A DNA stretch of 64,000 bases from Verrucomicrobiota bacterium (lineage in GTDB: Bacteria > Verrucomicrobiota > Verrucomicrobiia > Limisphaerales > Palsa-1400): NCBI GenBank assembly GCA_049510745.1, contig JBEKYR010000008.1, forward strand, positions 160,001 through 224,000. Direction: 5' to 3'. Shown here one piece after another: positions 15,376-63,434 of this stretch. Made by a program: the position numbers and the translations under genes. A model generated the notes under the pieces. It did no database searches, had not been told where the DNA came from, and was given only the letters and a program-made list of their open reading frames with translations. How positions within the stretch are numbered: the first letter of the stretch is position 1; the number at the start of each line of letters is the position of its first letter.

Positions 15376-15451
15376 GCCCCTGTACCTCAAATGGATAGAG
15401 GAGCGGTTTCCTAAACCGTCCATCCCGGTTCAATTCCGGGCGGGGGTACCA
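15376..15451 (+). tRNA. tRNA-Arg(CCT)
   Basis: 76-nt cloverleaf GCCCCTG...CGGGGGT-A-CCA; anticodon arm GCGGT-TTCCTAA-ACCGT; T loop TTCAATT. Confidence 0.95.
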
Positions 15452-56174: not shown

Positions 56175-56735
56175 TCAACGTTTCAATAATTCGGCAACAT
56201 CGACGATGGCGTCCGGGAAGCGGGCGGGGCTGGCCTGGTCTCCGGCGTTTAGGATTTTAGACGAGCCGTAGCCGGTGAAATGCGGCTCGCGATAAACCTC
56301 CAGCGTCCCATTGACCAAATTCACGATCCACACCTCCGCGATGCCGGCGCGTCCGTAAGCCGGCAGCTTCACTTCACGGTCGGACTCCAGCGTCGAGTCA
56401 GACACTTCGATGAGCAGGAAGACGTCTTCGGGTCCGGGGTGGCGGCTGGTGTAATCGTCCGCCGCCGGATTGAGCAGCATCAAATCGGGCTGCGGCTCGG
56501 AATAGTCATCCAGATGAACAGGGTTTCGCACCGACAGCAACCAGCGATCCTTTGATAACGGGGTGAAAAGACGGTTGAGCCGTCTAACGATACCGCCATG
56601 ATATGGGCTAATTCGTGGTGTATCGATGATTTGGCCGTCGAGCAGTTCCACGCGGGCGCCCGGGCGGAGCACGCCGGTTTCACCCATGCGGTAATACTCC
56701 TTGACGCTAAAACGATGCCGGGGCTGCATCGGCAT
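56175..56735 (-). CDS. Uma2 family (DUF820) endonuclease
   Basis: RVEL.DG.I, SEPQPD, IEVSDSTL..DR..K...Y..AGI.EVW.V. Confidence 0.92.
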   Translation of the reverse strand: MPMQPRHRFSVKEYYRMGETGVLRPGARVELLDGQIIDTPRISPYHGGIVRRLNRLFTPLSKDRWLLSVRNPVHLDDYSEPQPDLMLLNPAADDYTSRHPGPEDVFLLIEVSDSTLESDREVKLPAYGRAGIAEVWIVNLVNGTLEVYREPHFTGYGSSKILNAGDQASPARFPDAIVDVAELLKR

Positions 56736-56738
56736 GGG

Positions 56739-57911
56739 CTAAATCTTCCCGTAAAACTCTTCGACCACGGCGCGGAAATTGTTCTCGGCCACGTTGATGA
56801 TTTTCATCTCGCGCTCGGCGCTTTCCACCGAATCGCTGGCGTGGGCGGCGTTGACCATGATGGTGGAGCCGAACTCGCGGCGCACGGAACCGGGCGGCGC
56901 TTTGGAAGGATCGGTCGGCCCCAGCACGTCGCGAATTTTCCCGATGGCCGCGACTCCTTCGTAAATGAGCGCGATACACTTTTCGGTGCCGGGCTGGGTT
57001 AACAGGGCCGGGTCGCACTCGGCGGGGGAGCGGCCGGACATGAATTTGACGATGTTCTCAAACTGGTTGTCGCCAAAAGAGGGTCCGAGGATTTCCCCGA
57101 GTTGTTTCTCGTCCCCCGGCGGCACCTTGAAACCGAATTCCTTTTCCAAGGCCGCCTTGGCGCGGGCGGCGACGACGTCTTTGAGCTTGGTGCGCAAGAC
57201 CTCGCGGACGGGGCTGTAAAACTCGGAGGCCTCGGCCACACTCATGCGATGGACTTTGATGCCGACAATGAAAAGACCGGTGCGCGAAAGGAAATCAATG
57301 ACGTTGCCGGGCCGCCCGGTGGCGAAGCGGAAATTGTCCGGCTTGATGAGGACCAGGGTGCGCTGGGGCGTTTCGCCCGGCCCATAGGCCAGCGTGCCGT
57401 TGACAATGCCGCCGTCGGAATCCGAGTAGCGGGCCCAGAGTTTGAGTTTCAGGCCCGCTTCTTCCGGCATGGGCGAGGCCAGCACGGCCGGCTCGAAATA
57501 GCGCACCTGGTCGTGTTCGTCCATGACGAGGTCGCCGTAGGTGTCGCGGATGGTCTCGCCCCCGTGGCGGCCGGGGGCGATGTTGCCGATGACGGAGCGG
57601 GTTTTGCGCACGGCTTCCTCGCCGCGGAACAAGAGCATCATGACGCGGCGGTGCCGCTTGCTCTTCGGGTCCGGGGCCAGATTGCGCAGGATGTAGTCGC
57701 GGATCAATTCCTGGACGCGGCGGTCTTGCGGATCGGCGGCGGAAATGATGAGGTCTGAGTATTGCTGGACCAGCTCGGCGCTGGGGGCGAACATGCGCGC
57801 CGCCACCAATTCCAGTCCGGTGCGGGTGATCAAACGCGCCAGGATGCCGCCGGTGCGCGATTTGTGCAGCGTGTAGGGGGTGATGATGACGTAGGCCAGT
57901 TGTTGCGCCAT
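56739..57911 (-). CDS. ndk: Two-domain nucleoside-diphosphate kinase
   Basis: C-terminal domain: TLVLIKPD, GPTDP..A.PGS.R..FG, NAAHASDS. N-terminal domain is degenerate. Confidence 0.85.
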   Translation of the reverse strand: MAQQLAYVIITPYTLHKSRTGGILARLITRTGLELVAARMFAPSAELVQQYSDLIISAADPQDRRVQELIRDYILRNLAPDPKSKRHRRVMMLLFRGEEAVRKTRSVIGNIAPGRHGGETIRDTYGDLVMDEHDQVRYFEPAVLASPMPEEAGLKLKLWARYSDSDGGIVNGTLAYGPGETPQRTLVLIKPDNFRFATGRPGNVIDFLSRTGLFIVGIKVHRMSVAEASEFYSPVREVLRTKLKDVVAARAKAALEKEFGFKVPPGDEKQLGEILGPSFGDNQFENIVKFMSGRSPAECDPALLTQPGTEKCIALIYEGVAAIGKIRDVLGPTDPSKAPPGSVRREFGSTIMVNAAHASDSVESAEREMKIINVAENNFRAVVEEFYGKI

Positions 57912-57918
57912 AGGGAAG

Positions 57919-58116
57919 TCAGCTTGGCTGGTTGGTGGGCTTGGAAGCAGTGGCTGTCGTCGCGGACGCTTTGCTGCCGCCAAGGATTTTGAACATCACC
58001 ACGCCGCAAGTCGGACACTTGCCCTTGATCGCTTTGCGCCCATTCTTCATCGTCTCTTCAACGGCCTCGGCAATTTCTTTTTTTGCTTTGCACTTAAAAC
58101 AATATCCTTCAGCCAT
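57919..58116 (-). CDS. DUF5679-like small zinc-ribbon protein
   Basis: YCFKCK.K.E......MKNGR.A.KG.CP.CG..MFKI. Confidence 0.85.
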   Translation of the reverse strand: MAEGYCFKCKAKKEIAEAVEETMKNGRKAIKGKCPTCGVVMFKILGGSKASATTATASKPTNQPS

Positions 58117-58275: not shown

Positions 58276-59760
58276 CTACGGGGCTTTCGAGGCGATTTTG
58301 CGCAGTTCCGTTTTCAGGATCTTGCCCGTCGCGTTATGCGGCAGGGCGGACACAAAAACCACGCGCCGGGGAATTTTGTAGTCGGCCAATCGCTCGCGCG
58401 CGAAGGCCAGCAGCGGCCCCTCCTCCAGTTGGACGCCCTCGTGCGGCGCGACAAACGCCAGCGGCTGCTCTCCGCGCCGCGCGTCGGGCACGCCGATGAC
58501 GGCGGCTTCCCTGACTCCGGGATATTTGTAGAGGATTTCCTCAATCTCGCGGGGATAGACGTTGATGCCGTTGACCAGGAGCATGTCCTTCTTGCGGTCG
58601 GTGATGTAGAAGTAACCGTCGGCGTCACTGTGGCCGATGTCGCCGGTCAAGAGCCAGCCGTTGCGCAGGACGTGGGCTGTGGCGGCGGGCTGATTCCAGT
58701 AGCCCTGCATGACGTTGGGGCCGCGCACACAGACTTCGCCCGTCTGCCCTGGCGGCAGCATCTCCCCGGCCTCGTTCTGAATGGTGACCTCGACGTTGGC
58801 AATGGGTTTGCCAATCGATCCCGCCTTCCACGGGCCGCGAATGGGCTGAAAGGAAACGACCGGACTGGCCTCGCTCAAGCCGTAGCCTTCGAGCAGCGGA
58901 ATGGGAAAGCAGGCGGTGAATTCCCGCAGCGTTTCGGCCGGCAACGGCGCGCCGCCGCTGATGCACAGGCGCAACGGAAAGGCGGGCGGCACCGCGCTGC
59001 GCGCCAGGGCGCGAAAGAATTGCGGCACGGCCGGCAGCAACGTGGCCTGATGCTGGAGGATTTCCAGGAGGACATTCTTGGGCGGATGCAGCGTTTTAAT
59101 GAGAACCATTGAGCCGCCGACCAGCATCGGCAGCAGCAGGCCGACCGTCAGCATGAAACTATGAAACAGGGGCAGGACCACGACAAACCGATCCGTCCCC
59201 ACCGCTTCGAGCGCCACGCGGCAACTCTGCACGTTGGCCAGCAGATTGCCGTGGGAGAGCATCGCCCCCTTGGGATGGCCGGTGGTGCCCGATGTGTAAA
59301 CGAGCACCGCCAGGTCCGCCTCGGTCAAATCGGAAGGGGCCGCCGCGCCGGCGTCCTCCAGCCGGCCAAAGGAGCTGGCGCGGAGCGATTTCAATTCGGG
59401 GCGCCCGGCCGCCAATTTTGCCAAACCCTCATCCATCGTTTCATCCACAATCAGAACATTGATGCCGGCATCGGCGAGAATGAAGCTGACTTCAGCCGGC
59501 TTGAGAAAATTGTTGATCGGCACCGCCACCGCGCCCGCCTGTAAAATGCCGAAGAGCGCCGGGACAAATTCCGGGCAATTCCTGAGCCAGATTCCGACCC
59601 GGTCGCCGCGCCGGACGCCGAAGCCAGCGCGCAACCGTTCCGCCACCCAGAGGGACTGCGACCAGAGATCGAGGTAAGAGAAGCGGGCGTCGCCCCAAAA
59701 GAGGGCGGTCTTGGCGGGATCGCCGCGGGCGTTGGAAGCGAAAGCGAGTGCCAGGTTCAT
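58276..59760 (-). CDS. Long-chain fatty acid--CoA ligase
   Basis: YTSGTTG.PKG, EGYGLSE, RGPNVM.GYW, TGDIG, DRKKD, TGKI.K. Confidence 0.93.
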   Translation of the reverse strand: MNLALAFASNARGDPAKTALFWGDARFSYLDLWSQSLWVAERLRAGFGVRRGDRVGIWLRNCPEFVPALFGILQAGAVAVPINNFLKPAEVSFILADAGINVLIVDETMDEGLAKLAAGRPELKSLRASSFGRLEDAGAAAPSDLTEADLAVLVYTSGTTGHPKGAMLSHGNLLANVQSCRVALEAVGTDRFVVVLPLFHSFMLTVGLLLPMLVGGSMVLIKTLHPPKNVLLEILQHQATLLPAVPQFFRALARSAVPPAFPLRLCISGGAPLPAETLREFTACFPIPLLEGYGLSEASPVVSFQPIRGPWKAGSIGKPIANVEVTIQNEAGEMLPPGQTGEVCVRGPNVMQGYWNQPAATAHVLRNGWLLTGDIGHSDADGYFYITDRKKDMLLVNGINVYPREIEEILYKYPGVREAAVIGVPDARRGEQPLAFVAPHEGVQLEEGPLLAFARERLADYKIPRRVVFVSALPHNATGKILKTELRKIASKAP

Positions 59761-59920
59761 TGAAGTTCCGAATGTTCCCAAGGGGGCCGGAGAAGCGCAA
59801 GGTTGAAAGGGTCGAAATATCAGGGTAGGGGCCGCTTTGGTTTGCTTTGCCTGATCTTGGGTTGTGGGCTACTTTGAATTTCCGCTGGCACGTTGACCGC
59901 AAAAGCGGCACGTTGCCAGC

Positions 59921-60052
59921 ATGATTAAACCGAAGAAGAAGCGCAAGGGAGATGCGGCCCAAGTCGCTTAAAGCGTCATGCAGGAGGTTATCCGAATGAG
60001 CAATAAGCCCATTGTCGCCCCGCCCGCCACAAAGCCCAAGAAAAAGCGGTAA
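59921..60052 (+). pseudogene. Small basic protein, interrupted
   Basis: MIKPKKKRKGDAAQVA*SVMQEVIRMSNKPIVAPPATKPKKKR*, just inside the left TIR. Confidence 0.45.
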
Positions 60053-60099
60053 TTTTCGGGCTTTCTTCATGGGCGGAATTGGGGCTTTATGCGGTGATT

Positions 60100-60699
60100 A
60101 TGCCGAAACCGCAACCGAAGCGCTCCAAGGTCAAAAAGGACACCCCAACGCGTAGGCTTAAATTTGCTGGTCAAATCAGGGAGTGGGCCAAAAAAGATAT
60201 TGTGACCGCAACATTTTTCGCGCAAAGAGGGAGAATATTCAGCGACATGGAATTGGCATTGGTGTGTTATTACTTCATCTGGGATAAATTTAAAGTCCTG
60301 CAATCCGGTCAAAATCCAATCGAACAAGGAATTTTGGGGGAACTATGGACAAAGGAGGTGTCGGACGCATACTCAAAAAACATTTCGCAACTTTTTGCCC
60401 AAGATCGAAGAAAACTATGCGGGATATTCTTGAATGCAGTGGAAAACCGCGATGCTGGAAAGATTTTAGAGATTGCCAAGGCGGTCAAATTCTTAAAGAC
60501 ATTCAAAGAGAATAGCGACCATTGCCGGGCTGGCATCTTGGGTTTGAAAAGTGTACTGGATAAAAATAACCGAAAAATGCCAATCAGCGAACTGGCGCGG
60601 GCGGTCAAATGGCCTGCAAGTGACGCAAAGCACGGATTTTGGAGACTTCGCAGAATCGCCAAGGAATTGAATTTCCCGCTGGAGCCTCAACACAAATAA
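60100..60699 (+). CDS. Hypothetical passenger protein, possible C-terminal HTH
   Basis: 199-aa AT-rich ORF; MPISELARAV.W......WRLRRIAKEL. Confidence 0.65.
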   Translation: MPKPQPKRSKVKKDTPTRRLKFAGQIREWAKKDIVTATFFAQRGRIFSDMELALVCYYFIWDKFKVLQSGQNPIEQGILGELWTKEVSDAYSKNISQLFAQDRRKLCGIFLNAVENRDAGKILEIAKAVKFLKTFKENSDHCRAGILGLKSVLDKNNRKMPISELARAVKWPASDAKHGFWRLRRIAKELNFPLEPQHK

Positions 60700-60887
60700 G
60701 GCCGTGCAAACCGCGATAATGTGTTGAGTGTGTTTCAACTTCATAGGGTAAATTCCCCTCACGGAACTGCAATTCCGCAATAGGCGCATGTAATTTAGAA
60801 ACCGCTTTGTGTCCAATGCCCGCGCCGGGTGTTTTGCAGTTGGATGCGAGGCGGTTTTCGTTTTTGCGATTATGAAATTAAAACGGT

Positions 60888-60981
60888 CGCGCTTGCGTAG
60901 CCATTAAGGGCGGATACGTGGAGCGCGGACAAATGGGCACGGCCCGCTTGGTGATTCTTTGGCAAGACAACCAAGCGGGCC
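60888..60981 (+). ncRNA. Two strong hairpins upstream of the tRNA-like RNA (leader or separate structured RNA)
   Basis: CGCGCTT-GCGTA-GCC...GGC..TACGT..GAGCGCG (60888-60928) and GGCCCGCTTGGT...ACCAAGCGGGCC (60941-60981; 12-bp perfect stem). Confidence 0.55.
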
Positions 60982-60996
60982 GCAAACGTAATGAAT

Positions 60997-61092
60997 GGGG
61001 CCAGTCCCCTTTGGCTGGACGCCGTAACGCGGGTTTAGACCGCTAGGGGCATTGTGTAATGCAATGGGGTTCGACTCCCACTGGTTCCACCA
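60997..61092 (+). ncRNA. Non-canonical tRNA-like RNA (9/3 allo-tRNA-like; Ala identity elements; UUA in anticodon-like loop)
   Basis: GGGGCCAGT pairs with ACTGGTTCC, followed by A-CCA. T arm GGG-TTCGACT-CCC. Internal hairpins GGC-TGGAC-GCC, GCGG-GTTTAGA-CCGC and CATTG-TGTAATG-CAATG. Confidence 0.72.
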
Positions 61093-61248
61093 TTTACGCG
61101 GATACAGAACCACAGTCTGCCGCTGAAAGCAAGACTTTTCTGGCCCATTTCGACTGCGACAGGCCAGATTTGACGATTGTCGCATCAATTGTTTTGCGCT
61201 CGCCAGCCGTGAACCGGAGTTTTATGGCGTGCAAACAGGACAACATAC

Positions 61249-61797
61249 CTAGTCCGCCATCTCGCCGGTAAAAAACTCCACTATTTGTTCTTTTGTTCGC
61301 GGCTTGGTGCCGCGCTTCTGCACTACTTCGTGGTAAACTAAATAGAATCCAGTCCAGACGTCAGATTCATCGCCCTTTTGCTTTCTTATCACCTGGTCAA
61401 AACACGTCTCCCAGTAATATTGAATGTAAATCGAGTAGTCGCAATAAATCCTACTTTTCTGCATTTCATGGTCTTCAAGCGCGGAGCCAAGATCATTAAA
61501 GAAATCAATTATATCCTCGCTTATGTCGGCTGGTTTATCCAGGTTTTCCAAGATTATTTTTGCGGCTTTTTGGCGCTTTGGTTCAAGCCGTTCCCAGCGT
61601 TCCTCGAAGTAATTGGCCCTTTCTTCGGCTTTTTCACCCCACTTGAACCGAGATATGAGAACGCAAAGGATTGCGCTTATGATAAACCATTTGCCTGCAA
61701 TCGCGTGGTCTTGTGATGCGATGGCGGCAAAAAGCGGGGCACCAACTAACACAACCAGCCCCTCCGCTCGAATCCATCTGTGGAGCCAAGGAAACAT
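61249..61797 (-). CDS. Hypothetical membrane-anchored passenger protein (DUF4760-like C-terminus)
   Basis: Two N-terminal TM segments; II.FF..LG.......I...Y..YI.YYWE. Confidence 0.65.
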   Translation of the reverse strand: MFPWLHRWIRAEGLVVLVGAPLFAAIASQDHAIAGKWFIISAILCVLISRFKWGEKAEERANYFEERWERLEPKRQKAAKIILENLDKPADISEDIIDFFNDLGSALEDHEMQKSRIYCDYSIYIQYYWETCFDQVIRKQKGDESDVWTGFYLVYHEVVQKRGTKPRTKEQIVEFFTGEMAD

Positions 61798-62093
61798 TTG
61801 GCCAGATTGACCCTAAATCCGATGTTGAAAAGGCATTTTTTGAGCCTGTTTTGCTTTCACATCCCGAATTTATACCACTACTATTCAGAAAATACGTGCT
61901 TCATGTTGAATATCAGAGGTTTACAAATCGCGCCGCAGAGCGGCGGCGCGATTTGTAAGATCTCTCAATTTCTCCGTTGACAGGTTCTTGGCTGAAAACG
62001 CGGCGGGCGCGATTACAAGCTTCAAAGTAGCCCACTACCTGGCCTTGACTGGGCTTGACCGGACAAGGAGGAAGGCAGGATGAATTCAGCGGT

Positions 62094-63434
62094 TCAACGG
62101 CGGCGCGCCGTCAACGAGGAGGGTCGGGATTTCTTCCGGGTGCTTTTCGCCGCCGCCGGTTTTGCGCCTGTCCGGGCGTGTTGTTCCATCGCGGCTTCGA
62201 CCCGGGCGCGGTCGGTTTCGACAAAGCACTGGAGTTGTTCGGCGGAGGGCAGCACCGTGAGATAGCGGGAAACGAAGAGGCGGTTGTCCATGCCCGCCGT
62301 GGCGAACTGCACCTTGGTGTGGTCCTTGTCGCTACAGAGGAGGATGCCGACGGGCGGTTGATCGCCCTCCGCCATCATGCGGTCCTTAAAATAGTTGAGG
62401 TAATAATTCATCTGGCCCGCGTCGCCGTGTTGGAAGGGGCGGACTTTCAGATCGAGCAGGACGTGGCAACGGAGGCGCCGTTGATAGAAGACCAAATCCA
62501 CGTAGTCGTGCTCGTTGCCAAGGGTCACCCGGAACTGGCGGGCCTCGAAACAAAAGCCCGTGCCGAGTTCGAGCAGGAATTTTTGCAGGTGGTCGAGCAG
62601 GGCCGTTTCGAGATCGCTCTCGGTGTATTGCGGCAATTGGGCGAGGCCGGTGAATTCGAGGACGTAGGGATCGCGGATCAGGTCTTCGATGGTTTCCTGC
62701 GGCTCTTGAGCGCGGGCGCGTTTGATGACGGCGGCTTTATTTCTGGAAAGACCGGTCCGCTCAAAAAGGAGTGACCCAATCTGGCGTTGAAGCTGGCGCT
62801 TCGACCAGTTGCCCTTGAGACACTCGTTTTCATAGAAGGCGCGCTTTAGCGGGTCGTCGATGCGAATGAGTTCAAGGATGTGCGTCCAGGAGAAATGAAG
62901 GACGGCTTCGGGAGAAAGAGGCGTTATGCCGGAAGATTGGCCAACCCGTGGTTGGCCAATTCCGTAACCGGTGGTGACGGAATGACCAGCCAGACCAGAG
63001 GTTGCCGGCGCGCTCAATTCCGTAAGCGGTGAGGACGGAATTTTGCCGCCAAAAGCGCGCCGGGAAATCCTCACCGGTGGTGAGGATTTTTGACTCCCAC
63101 CGCCTGGCAGAAGGAGACGATTGCCCAATTCCCTCACCAGCGGTGAGGAAATCTTTGAGCCAAGTTGAGGATAAACTCCGTAGAGCAGGCGTGTGCGTTC
63201 CAACATCTGAACGCTTAAGCCACCGATCCCACGTTGTTTCAGGTCAGCGGCAAGCCGTGACAACAATCGGACTCCGTATTTCGCGCGATCCTCGCCATTC
63301 TGCTCGAATTCCACGAGGTATGCCCCAACCAGCCAGTTACGGATGACGAGGGATTGATTGACGACGGCGGCGGCGCGACCGAGCAACTCCCGGCTGGCCG
63401 AATCAATCGCTTTGACAAGTTGATTGTATCTCAT
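62094..63434 (-). CDS. YhcG/DUF1016 family PD-(D/E)xK nuclease-domain protein
   Basis: W.VG.Y.VEFEQ.GEDRA.YG, SWTH, R.FYE, WS.R.L.RQI, DPY.LEF, FLLELG.GF.F, GQMN.Y. Confidence 0.92.
   Translation of the reverse strand: MRYNQLVKAIDSASRELLGRAAAVVNQSLVIRNWLVGAYLVEFEQNGEDRAKYGVRLLSRLAADLKQRGIGGLSVQMLERTRLLYGVYPQLGSKISSPLVRELGNRLLLPGGGSQKSSPPVRISRRAFGGKIPSSPLTELSAPATSGLAGHSVTTGYGIGQPRVGQSSGITPLSPEAVLHFSWTHILELIRIDDPLKRAFYENECLKGNWSKRQLQRQIGSLLFERTGLSRNKAAVIKRARAQEPQETIEDLIRDPYVLEFTGLAQLPQYTESDLETALLDHLQKFLLELGTGFCFEARQFRVTLGNEHDYVDLVFYQRRLRCHVLLDLKVRPFQHGDAGQMNYYLNYFKDRMMAEGDQPPVGILLCSDKDHTKVQFATAGMDNRLFVSRYLTVLPSAEQLQCFVETDRARVEAAMEQHARTGAKPAAAKSTRKKSRPSSLTARRR

Follow-up and report, generated by a model that had tools for sequence, protein, structure and literature searches.

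The question raised by this locus is whether a small RNA with a stop-reading loop, encoded within a mobile element, is a transfer RNA (tRNA) of unusual architecture, how it is carried and what it may do. The DNA is a 64,000-nucleotide (nt) stretch of contig JBEKYR010000008.1 from a Verrucomicrobiota bacterium, referred to here as the window, and the RNA lies at positions 60997-61092. Our analysis indicates that it is very probably a transposon-borne variant of the allo-tRNAs, which are among the few natural departures from the universal cloverleaf and already serve as chassis for genetic-code expansion. A sixth helix, backed by covariation, rewires the tRNA core of this RNA, with an alanine-type end and an ochre anticodon retained.

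60997-61092, forward strand: tRNA-like RNA, most probably a six-helix (9/3) allo-tRNA variant, with A73 at 61089 and the encoded CCA at 61090-61092
61033-61039, forward strand: 7-nt loop GUUUAGA, with UUA (61035-61037) at the anticodon position
61006-61049, forward strand: extra helix CCCC/GGGG (61006-61009 paired with 61046-61049) and the hairpins enclosed by it

The acceptor stem comprises 9 base pairs (bp; 60997-61005 with 61080-61088, strands GGGGCCAGU and ACUGGUUCC) and includes the wobble pairs G3.U and G4.U, while the T arm has a 3-bp stem, GGG/CCC (61067-61069 with 61077-61079), and the loop TTCGACT. A D-like hairpin (61012-61015 with 61021-61024, loop UGGAC) and an anticodon-like arm with a 4-bp stem, GCGG/CCGC (61029-61032 with 61040-61043), are both enclosed by the extra helix and are followed by a variable-arm hairpin (61050-61066). 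An earlier sequence-only reading of the window had described the 9-bp acceptor stem with G3.U and G4.U, A73, CCA, the 3-bp T stem and the GUUUAGA loop, and each of these was found exactly where it had been placed. A 7/5 cloverleaf cannot be drawn for this RNA, because U69 and G70 cannot pair with C85 and A84. The minimum free energy (MFE) is -44.6 kcal/mol, compared with -34.5 +/- 3.2 kcal/mol for 200 dinucleotide shuffles (z -3.14; none of the 200 as stable), and the MFE structure includes every helix named above, the extra helix among them. The acceptor stem, extra helix, variable arm and T arm meet in a four-way junction with almost no linker nucleotides. Counted on the secondary structure, the extra helix (four layers), two non-Watson-Crick positions and the anticodon stem (four layers) would match the ten layers of the normal D-stem/anticodon-stem stack.

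The RNA is single-copy in its 5.6-Mb genome and is missed by standard tools. ARAGORN, and Rfam at its gathering score, make a sole call in the window, a tRNA-Arg(CCU) at 15376-15451. A permissive Rfam scan aligns the RNA end to end with the selenocysteine tRNA family (tRNA-Sec, RF01852; 20.0 bits against a gathering score of 47, E 0.21, model positions 1-91), one lower-scoring overlapping match of the same clan having been dropped in favour of tRNA-Sec. A weak or absent standard hit had been anticipated from the sequence.

Homologues were recovered by BLAST and with a covariance model, R1, which was built without the extra helix. The RNA is present in four of the 31 genomes of the same family (G000, G014, G028 and G015), and the window copy scores 115 bits with R1 and 95.5 bits with a second model, R2. 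In metagenomes, a loose search pattern with the anticodon stem and T arm fixed and all seven loop positions free was fitted by 28 loci, 13 of which match R1 at 83-115 bits. Collapsing the 17 copies of the RNA leaves 12 distinct sequences. In a one-genome-per-species collection, the loop-free pattern gave 16 loci, none of them related (best R1 score 14.8 bits, E 0.51); this collection apparently lacks the three related RNA-bearing genomes, which are absent among its matches. Viral contigs gave no match to the loop-free pattern. Samples of 150 further genomes from the order, searched with R1, and of 150 further genomes from the phylum, searched with R2, gave no match under strict filters that scored only 27 candidates per genome. 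A 27-nt match in G018 is merely the 3' end of an ordinary tRNA-Ala-type gene.

The fold is under selection. Across the 12 sequences, 96.8% of the 348 pair cells of alignment A7 hold standard pairs, a share that drops to 38.6-49.0% if the 3' partners are shifted by 1-3 columns; A7 was fitted to the structure by the model, a bias in the structure's favour. RNAalifold, run unaided on a plain MAFFT alignment of nine loci, returns the same six helices, the extra helix included. Seven pairs are changed on both sides, which is the outcome of the check on compensatory change that the sequence-only reading had proposed, and none of 500 shuffles attains the observed pairing, double-change counts or covariation score. 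All variable helices covary. The nine acceptor pairs and three T-stem pairs are fully paired in every sequence, and the variable arm, a 5-bp stem with a 6-7-nt loop, is paired in 96.7% of cells, with two covarying pairs. The D-like hairpin consists of a 4-bp stem and a YGGAY loop (5 nt; 3 nt in one sequence), is separated from the acceptor stem by the extra-helix strand (4 nt) plus 1-2 nt, and covaries among the stems UGGC/GCCG, CAGU/GCUG, CACC/GGUG and CAGC/GCUG; its 'unpaired' cells in A7 are explained by a one-column offset of three rows. Unlike the other stems, the anticodon stem, with its 4 Watson-Crick pairs, does not vary in any of the 12 sequences.

The extra helix, first proposed from the sequence as a CCCC/GGGG junction pairing, is real. 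Its four positions (nt 10-13 with 50-53) are paired in 12/12 sequences with no broken cell, in the forms CCCC/GGGG (four sequences), UCCC/GGGA (seven) and CCUC/GAGG (one). Two positions are strictly compensatory (UA in seven and CG in five; CG in 11 and UA in one), and the helix appears both in the MFE structure and in the RNAalifold consensus. The D-to-anticodon linker within the enclosed region (window 61025-61028) contains UAA in ten of the 12 sequences, the other two having AAAAA and CAAAC. This UAA is complementary to the loop UUA, so that a small pseudoknot hiding the anticodon is conceivable, but it has no covariation support.

Because compensatory changes in 12 sequences show selection on the fold, chance and ordinary decay are rejected as explanations. 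A decaying relic with no present function, whether an old allo-tRNA, a pseudogene derived from tRNA-Ala or the joined ends of a transfer-messenger RNA (tmRNA), is largely refuted by the same changes and is extremely improbable. The window copy keeps every one of the 29 model pairs, and a decayed ordinary tRNA is contradicted by the covariation. Candidate tmRNA remnants or joined tmRNA ends were rejected: the RNA has no tag frame and no ARAGORN or Rfam tmRNA match, and an intact tmRNA of 351 nt, with the tag ANQELALAA, lies on contig C29 and is dissimilar by eye. The judgement of the sequence-only reading that the RNA is not a tmRNA therefore stands. The tRNA-like domain of tmRNA shares G3.U, A73, alanine identity and the T loop with the present RNA, which differs in having an anticodon-like arm, no tag frame and no pseudoknots. 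What favours a relic is the state of the surrounding element, described below, which looks old and immobile: it has no transposase gene, one repeat mismatch and a target duplication of 6/8, and the genome holds transposase fragments only.

The closest known RNAs are the allo-tRNAs described in the text and supplement of Mukai et al. (Nucleic Acids Res 2017, PMC5389517), which have 8/4 or 9/3 branches. A UAA-reading anticodon occurs among the (9/3) species, some of which carry G3:U70. Novelty had been overstated in this respect, since (9/3) allo-tRNAs with UUA and G3:U70 are already in that publication, and the present RNA is a structural variant of them. In E. coli, (9/3) allo-tRNAs whose wild-type form has UUA and G3:U70 worked only once the anticodon had been changed to CUA: they then underwent processing, received mainly Ala and Ser and took part in translation on the E. 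coli ribosomes, with insertion of Ala and/or Ser (PMC5389517; restated in PMC7590224). A 2020 review (PMC7609411) and Mukai 2020 (PMC7590224) repeat the allo-tRNA points of the 2017 paper.

With the two (9/3) species listed with UUA and G3:U70 (PMC5389517, supplementary rows 638 and 647), the present RNA shares the 9+3 = 12-bp branch, the long variable arm, G3.U, the UUA anticodon, A73 (in one of the two) and a GC-rich anticodon stem starting CGCGG (by eye). It shares with these allo-tRNAs a best Rfam match to tRNA-Sec, the model through which they were discovered, as well as an origin in soil or peat and a link to mobile elements. It differs in four extra nucleotides on each side, which form the covarying helix 10-13 x 50-53, and in its D hairpin, which has 4 bp and a 5-nt loop where the published species have a long stem and a tetraloop after a 0-2-nt linker. 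The anticodon stem has 4 pairs rather than 6, and the loop is GUUUA(G/C)A rather than CUUUAAA. Seven signature strings of the present family (8-15 nt) were not found in the supplementary file of PMC5389517 (main table of 731 rows). Judged against the text and supplement of that paper, the new features are the extra helix and, as described below, the leader hairpins, a ribbon-helix-helix partner gene and the precise transposon ends.

Two further comparisons bear on the shape of the RNA. The allo-tRNA(UAU) group and irregular polycistronic tRNAs of Acidobacteria, as described in the text of PMC5389517, likewise have non-standard junctions ('five-stem-junction structures', an extra acceptor-D loop), a transposon-related protein and toxin-antitoxin-type genes nearby, and doubtful translational activity. 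They have another anticodon and body sequence, the text on them presents no analysis of inverted repeats or target duplications, and the junctions are compared here by their text description only. Selenocysteine tRNA (RF01852), the only Rfam family matched end to end, shares the long acceptor stem, the long variable arm and the overall length, whereas the present RNA has UUA instead of UCA, the alanine-type end with G3.U and A73, and a branch split 9/3, where tRNA-Sec has 8/5 or 9/4. The host encodes a separate tRNA-Sec, on contig C19.

The RNA is genuine cargo of a transposon and moves within an element bounded by inverted repeats, as the sequence-only reading had proposed; the element in the window itself lacks a transposase gene.

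59860-62039, no strand assigned: whole non-autonomous IS1-like cargo transposon, 2,180 bp, delimited by inverted repeats and a trough in guanine-plus-cytosine (GC) content
59860-59878, forward strand: left terminal inverted repeat, GGTTGTGGGCTACTTTGAA, from a motif scan
62021-62039, reverse strand: right terminal inverted repeat, from a motif scan

The two 19-nt terminal repeats agree, as reverse complements, at 18 of 19 positions. The flanking octamers at 59852-59859 (TGATCTTG) and 62040-62047 (TGGCCTTG) are identical at six of eight positions, which represents a degenerate target duplication. GC content is 0.44-0.53 along the element (0.48 overall), compared with 0.59-0.64 in the flanks and 0.603 in the genome. 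No open reading frame (ORF) of the window element matches a transposase family in Pfam or NCBIfam.

Relatives show the same boundaries more clearly. The end repeats lie far out, so that a comparison of the DNA adjoining the RNA and the transposase missed them and longer flanks revealed them. The 17-nt end motif of the G015 locus recurs as inverted pairs around the RNA in six of the 12 distinct loci. In six loci, repeats of 17-20 nt are present at both ends, with perfect 8-bp target duplications in five of the six, the window being the exception; the elements measure 2,180 bp (window), 3,204 bp (G014), 3,889 bp (G028), 2,528 bp (G015), 3,328 bp (L032) and 1,863 bp (L044). Only the right repeat was found in L026, L037/L041 and L045, and L028 has a forward copy downstream; L043 and L047, the latter a short contig, have no end repeat at up to 4 mismatches.

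Four loci (L002, L032, L005 and L006) carry an intact transposase ORF of 276-281 amino acids (aa), on the same strand as the RNA and 250-450 nt downstream of it, and the transposase is broken in L044 and L045. Pfam DDE_Tnp_IS1 (PF03400) passes its cut-off of 24.1 in three of five transposases scanned (33.7, 27.0 and 24.2 bits), and NCBIfam transpos_IS1 scores the relatives' transposase at 73 bits, under its cut-off of 100. The relatives' elements share with the IS1 family inverted repeats of ~19 nt beginning GGT and 8-bp target duplications. On these scores, their DDE transposase would be a distant member; it is encoded in one ORF, and no frameshift is seen. Of the 31 family genomes, 22 hold the transposase family, often in multiple copies, and only four hold the RNA, which marks the RNA as a passenger of a subset of elements and not as a core part of the insertion sequence. 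A literature search found no paper on IS1-family elements with tRNA passengers or on transposon-borne suppressor tRNAs. A loose published remark, that allo-tRNAs lie near transposon-related genes, thereby becomes a defined IS1-like element with ends, duplications, a regulator and a leader, and why mobile elements carry suppressor-like tRNAs becomes a testable question.

Contigs from four DNA runs, compared over 59400-62500, include none that joins across the element, so that no empty site was observed; other contigs of these runs match solely at the repeat ends or over 34-41 nt in the 3' part of the RNA. The segment 62009-62060, comprising the right repeat and ~21 nt of the outside flank, is matched with 5 differences by contigs from elsewhere in three of the four runs (1,392-3,458 nt long in runs X2 and X6, 254 nt in X10), and the insertion site itself may lie within repeated sequence. 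An exact 13-nt direct repeat, AACTGAGGCGGTT, at -150 and +1514 from the RNA start in G014 (L051) lies inside the element and hence is not a target duplication. Its left copy is part of a terminator-like sequence common to the window (60848-60862), and the two copies flank the RNA-transposase block.

Around the RNA, the relatives preserve a cassette.

60888-60928, forward strand: leader hairpin 1 (HP1), from RNAalifold over nine loci, with both-side changes in three of seven pairs
60940-60982, forward strand: leader hairpin 2 (HP2), a GC-rich stem of 13 bp whose end lies 14 nt short of the 5' end of the RNA
60830-60862, forward strand: terminator-like hairpin with a T run, immediately before the conserved RNA unit, from a consensus scan, weak alone
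61094-61246, reverse strand: ribbon-helix-helix (NikA-like) gene converging on the RNA, 50 aa, with its TAA stop at 61094-61096, 2 nt past CCA

Both leader hairpins are kept upstream of the RNA in all loci, with compensatory changes in each; HP2 is present in 12/12 loci by eye, and five of its eight pairs show both-side changes in RNAalifold. The terminator consensus scan gave one site against 1.1 expected by chance; the sequence is common to the window and G014. An ATG (GTG in one) followed by AAR-TTA stands ~125 nt upstream of the RNA in the ten loci inspected (window 60873-60908). A leader peptide starting there is not favoured: the peptides differ, the frames are short (11 codons with a TAA end in the window) and no consistent ribosome-binding site is seen by eye. 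The motif may instead be a promoter or transcript-start element.

The ribbon-helix-helix protein is 55-64 aa long in the six relatives with an assigned start, and the window copy (50 aa) is without their basic N-terminal arm. Its Pfam NikA-like score is 26.1 bits (cut-off 27), against 28.9-31.2 bits in three relatives, and DUF6290 is also matched. In all seven intact loci the gene ends in TAA, the stop starting 2-6 nt past the last aligned base of the RNA. The gene is without that stop in L043, is reduced to a 23-codon stub in G028 and is lacking in L002, L032 and L037. A promoter-like TTGACA, the putative -35 box of the transposase promoter, lies between this gene and the transposase. In L044, L045 and L006 there are three copies of the motif GTAATAC, one immediately past the 3' end of the RNA and two as an inverted pair that flanks the TTGACA box; the window's copy has diverged (GCGGATAC). 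Their placement suggests that these copies could be operators bound by the ribbon-helix-helix protein or by the transposase.

Such an arrangement is also what the main rival explanation draws upon, namely that the RNA is a non-decoding tRNA mimic serving the transposon. Its tRNA shape would recruit RNase P, 3'-end enzymes or alanyl-tRNA synthetase (AlaRS), and the RNA, charged or not, would then mark the transcript for processing or regulate the neighbouring ribbon-helix-helix and transposase genes. The transcript runs antisense into the former gene and towards the latter, and the GUUUA(G/C)A loop would be a binding site and not an anticodon. We consider this explanation rather unlikely. Two covarying hairpins conserved alongside the RNA, a converging gene end 2-6 nt from its 3' end in 7/7 loci with the gene intact and GTAATAC both after the RNA and around the transposase -35 box are all consistent with this mimic, and the published allo-tRNA(UAU) group offers a precedent, being inactive in translation and proposed to be part of transposons or toxin-antitoxin systems (PMC5389517). 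Two observations argue the other way: the transposase family is found mostly without the RNA (22/31 against 4/31 genomes), and the window copy is intact though its element has no transposase.

The invariant positions of the RNA also bear on its function. All 12 sequences agree in the acceptor pairs G1-C, G2-C and G3.U and in A73, and they share without change the triplet UUA, the four pairs of the anticodon stem, the T stem and most of the T loop, the triplet being retained even though the search pattern left the loop free. The 9/3 architecture, the alanine-type acceptor end and the UUA loop claimed from the single sequence are supported by these homologues. The host's three chromosomal tRNA-Ala genes start with GGGG and end with CTCCACCA (CTCCA, as in the tRNA-like RNA), and two of the three share the T loop TTCGACT with it. 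CCA is encoded in the window copy, as in 47 of the host's 50 core tRNA calls. That G3.U70 and A73 suffice for AlaRS is established, as cited in PMC5389517. On these sequence marks, alanylation is likely, and it is the best-founded functional inference.

We therefore favour a reading in which the RNA is a decoding tRNA of restricted activity. In the first step, the RNA would be transcribed with its two-hairpin leader, cut by RNase P at G1 and trimmed at its 3' end like a tRNA. In the second, its 12-bp acceptor/T minihelix would imitate the top of host tRNA-Ala and be charged with alanine by AlaRS. These two predicted steps, transcription with processing and then alanylation, are probable. In a third step, the charged RNA would pair its UUA with UAA codons and act as a weak, alanine-inserting ochre suppressor; this is the leading mechanism, held tentatively. 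Finally, the converging ribbon-helix-helix protein would be the regulator of the element. The whole chain, a functional transposon passenger gene that is charged by AlaRS, suppresses ochre codons weakly and is regulated by the ribbon-helix-helix protein, falls a little short of an even chance.

Several observations weigh against this decoding reading. Position 32 is G in 12/12 sequences, position 37 is C in eight and G in four, and position 33, U in 11, is C in one. In decoding tRNAs, position 37 is nearly always a purine and position 32 a pyrimidine. The anticodon stem has only 4 Watson-Crick pairs, a fifth position pairing in 4/12 sequences by eye; the topology of the tRNA core is altered, so that an L shape is not assured; and CCA is encoded in only 4/12 sequences. 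No sigma-70-type promoter was found within 60600-61400, and no gene of the elements requires UAA read-through. UAA ends 27% of the host's open frames of at least 350 codons (TGA 57%); since UAA is an ordinary stop, the host shows no recoding and a strong suppressor would be costly. The transposon-linked allo-tRNA(UAU) group, which has odd junctions and both transposon-related and toxin-antitoxin genes as neighbours, showed no activity in translation in E. coli (PMC5389517). G32, G/C37 and a stem of only four Watson-Crick pairs would make suppression weak. Weak activity or tight control is also required by the host, in which about a quarter of the long open frames terminate at UAA.

Some of these traits would suit the non-decoding mimic. 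Its loop flanks are odd, with G32 always and C37 in 8/12 sequences, and a 4-bp anticodon stem that never varies where the other stems do fits sequence-specific recognition. A decoder nonetheless needs just what this 7-nt loop offers, UUA placed precisely where an anticodon belongs, together with U33 (11/12 sequences); the alanine marks are fully retained, no target of the loop was found, and the linker UAA, present in 10/12 sequences, does not covary with the loop.

Read-through of particular genes was considered in three forms, each of which was rejected. Self-regulation of the transposase finds no footing in its intact ORFs, which have no in-frame TAA, end in TAA (three) or TGA (one) and have no conserved extension. 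The tails past the TAA of the ribbon-helix-helix gene differ in frame and length (0, 4, 16 and ~19 aa). Frames with an in-frame TAA and at least 50 open codons on either side yielded no recoded gene common between elements. In L028, L047, L044 and L045, the next in-frame stop past the ribbon-helix-helix TAA is the antisense of the RNA's own UUA, giving a tail of ~19 aa; this is probably a coincidence, since the frame differs in the window, L006 and L026.

Should the RNA be both charged and decoding, it would widen the range of tRNA shapes known to be compatible with the ribosome and provide a ready-made orthogonal scaffold. The boldest form of the proposal is that a new tRNA core, with the D stem replaced by a long-range helix and a three-way junction, evolved naturally, is charged by AlaRS and is accepted by the ribosome, and that an IS1-like family spreads it as a self-limited alanine ochre suppressor together with a ribbon-helix-helix regulator and a leader. 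In this full form it is unlikely; if true, stop-codon read-through would be a mobile, switchable trait in peat and soil bacteria.

The remaining content of the element and its surroundings bears on one further explanation.

60079-60699, forward strand: 206-aa ORF, a possible cargo gene, with no Pfam or NCBIfam match and unlike the ORFs in the same place in G014 and L032
61249-61797, reverse strand: 182-aa ORF, weakly SLATT-like (NCBIfam SLATT_5, E 0.002, 17.6 bits against a cut-off of 60), with no Pfam match

The RNA could be a decoy or spare part against tRNA-targeting nucleases, or another defence-related tRNA mimic on a mobile element, an explanation that we regard as very improbable. It would be in keeping with the weakly SLATT-like ORF inside the element, with an Uma2 gene (56175-56735) and a YhcG PDDEXK nuclease gene (62094-63434) outside it, and with one relative that lies beside a WYL regulator. 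Across the window and five further loci scanned, however, no anticodon nuclease or tRNA-modifying toxin family adjoins the RNA, and no neighbour gene argues for a role as nuclease decoy, antitoxin or Ala donor. Apart from the transposase and the ribbon-helix-helix gene, the neighbours vary by locus, and the host has no ordinary tRNA with a matching UUA loop that could need protection.

The window element is flanked by an AMP-binding enzyme gene (58276-59781, reverse strand) and by the YhcG/DUF1016 PDDEXK nuclease gene, which is also on the reverse strand. Nearby on the same strand are a gene for a 414-aa protein with three nucleoside-diphosphate-kinase stretches (56739-57983) and the Uma2 endonuclease-like gene. 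In the G028 and G015 elements, a conserved ORF of ~100 aa after the transposase (cluster L006_1196_1510 / L040_1482_1796) represents a further passenger gene.

Elsewhere in the host assembly, contigs C73 (2821-4468), C74 (7082-11223) and C75 carry dense tRNA arrays with 11, 8 and 4 ARAGORN calls, respectively, in which the tRNA-Ala genes have an unusual T loop. These arrays could be a phage-like or mobile tRNA array. One of their calls is a 77-nt 'tRNA-Stop' with the anticodon UUA in the loop AUUUAGU, a second ochre-anticodon candidate in the assembly.

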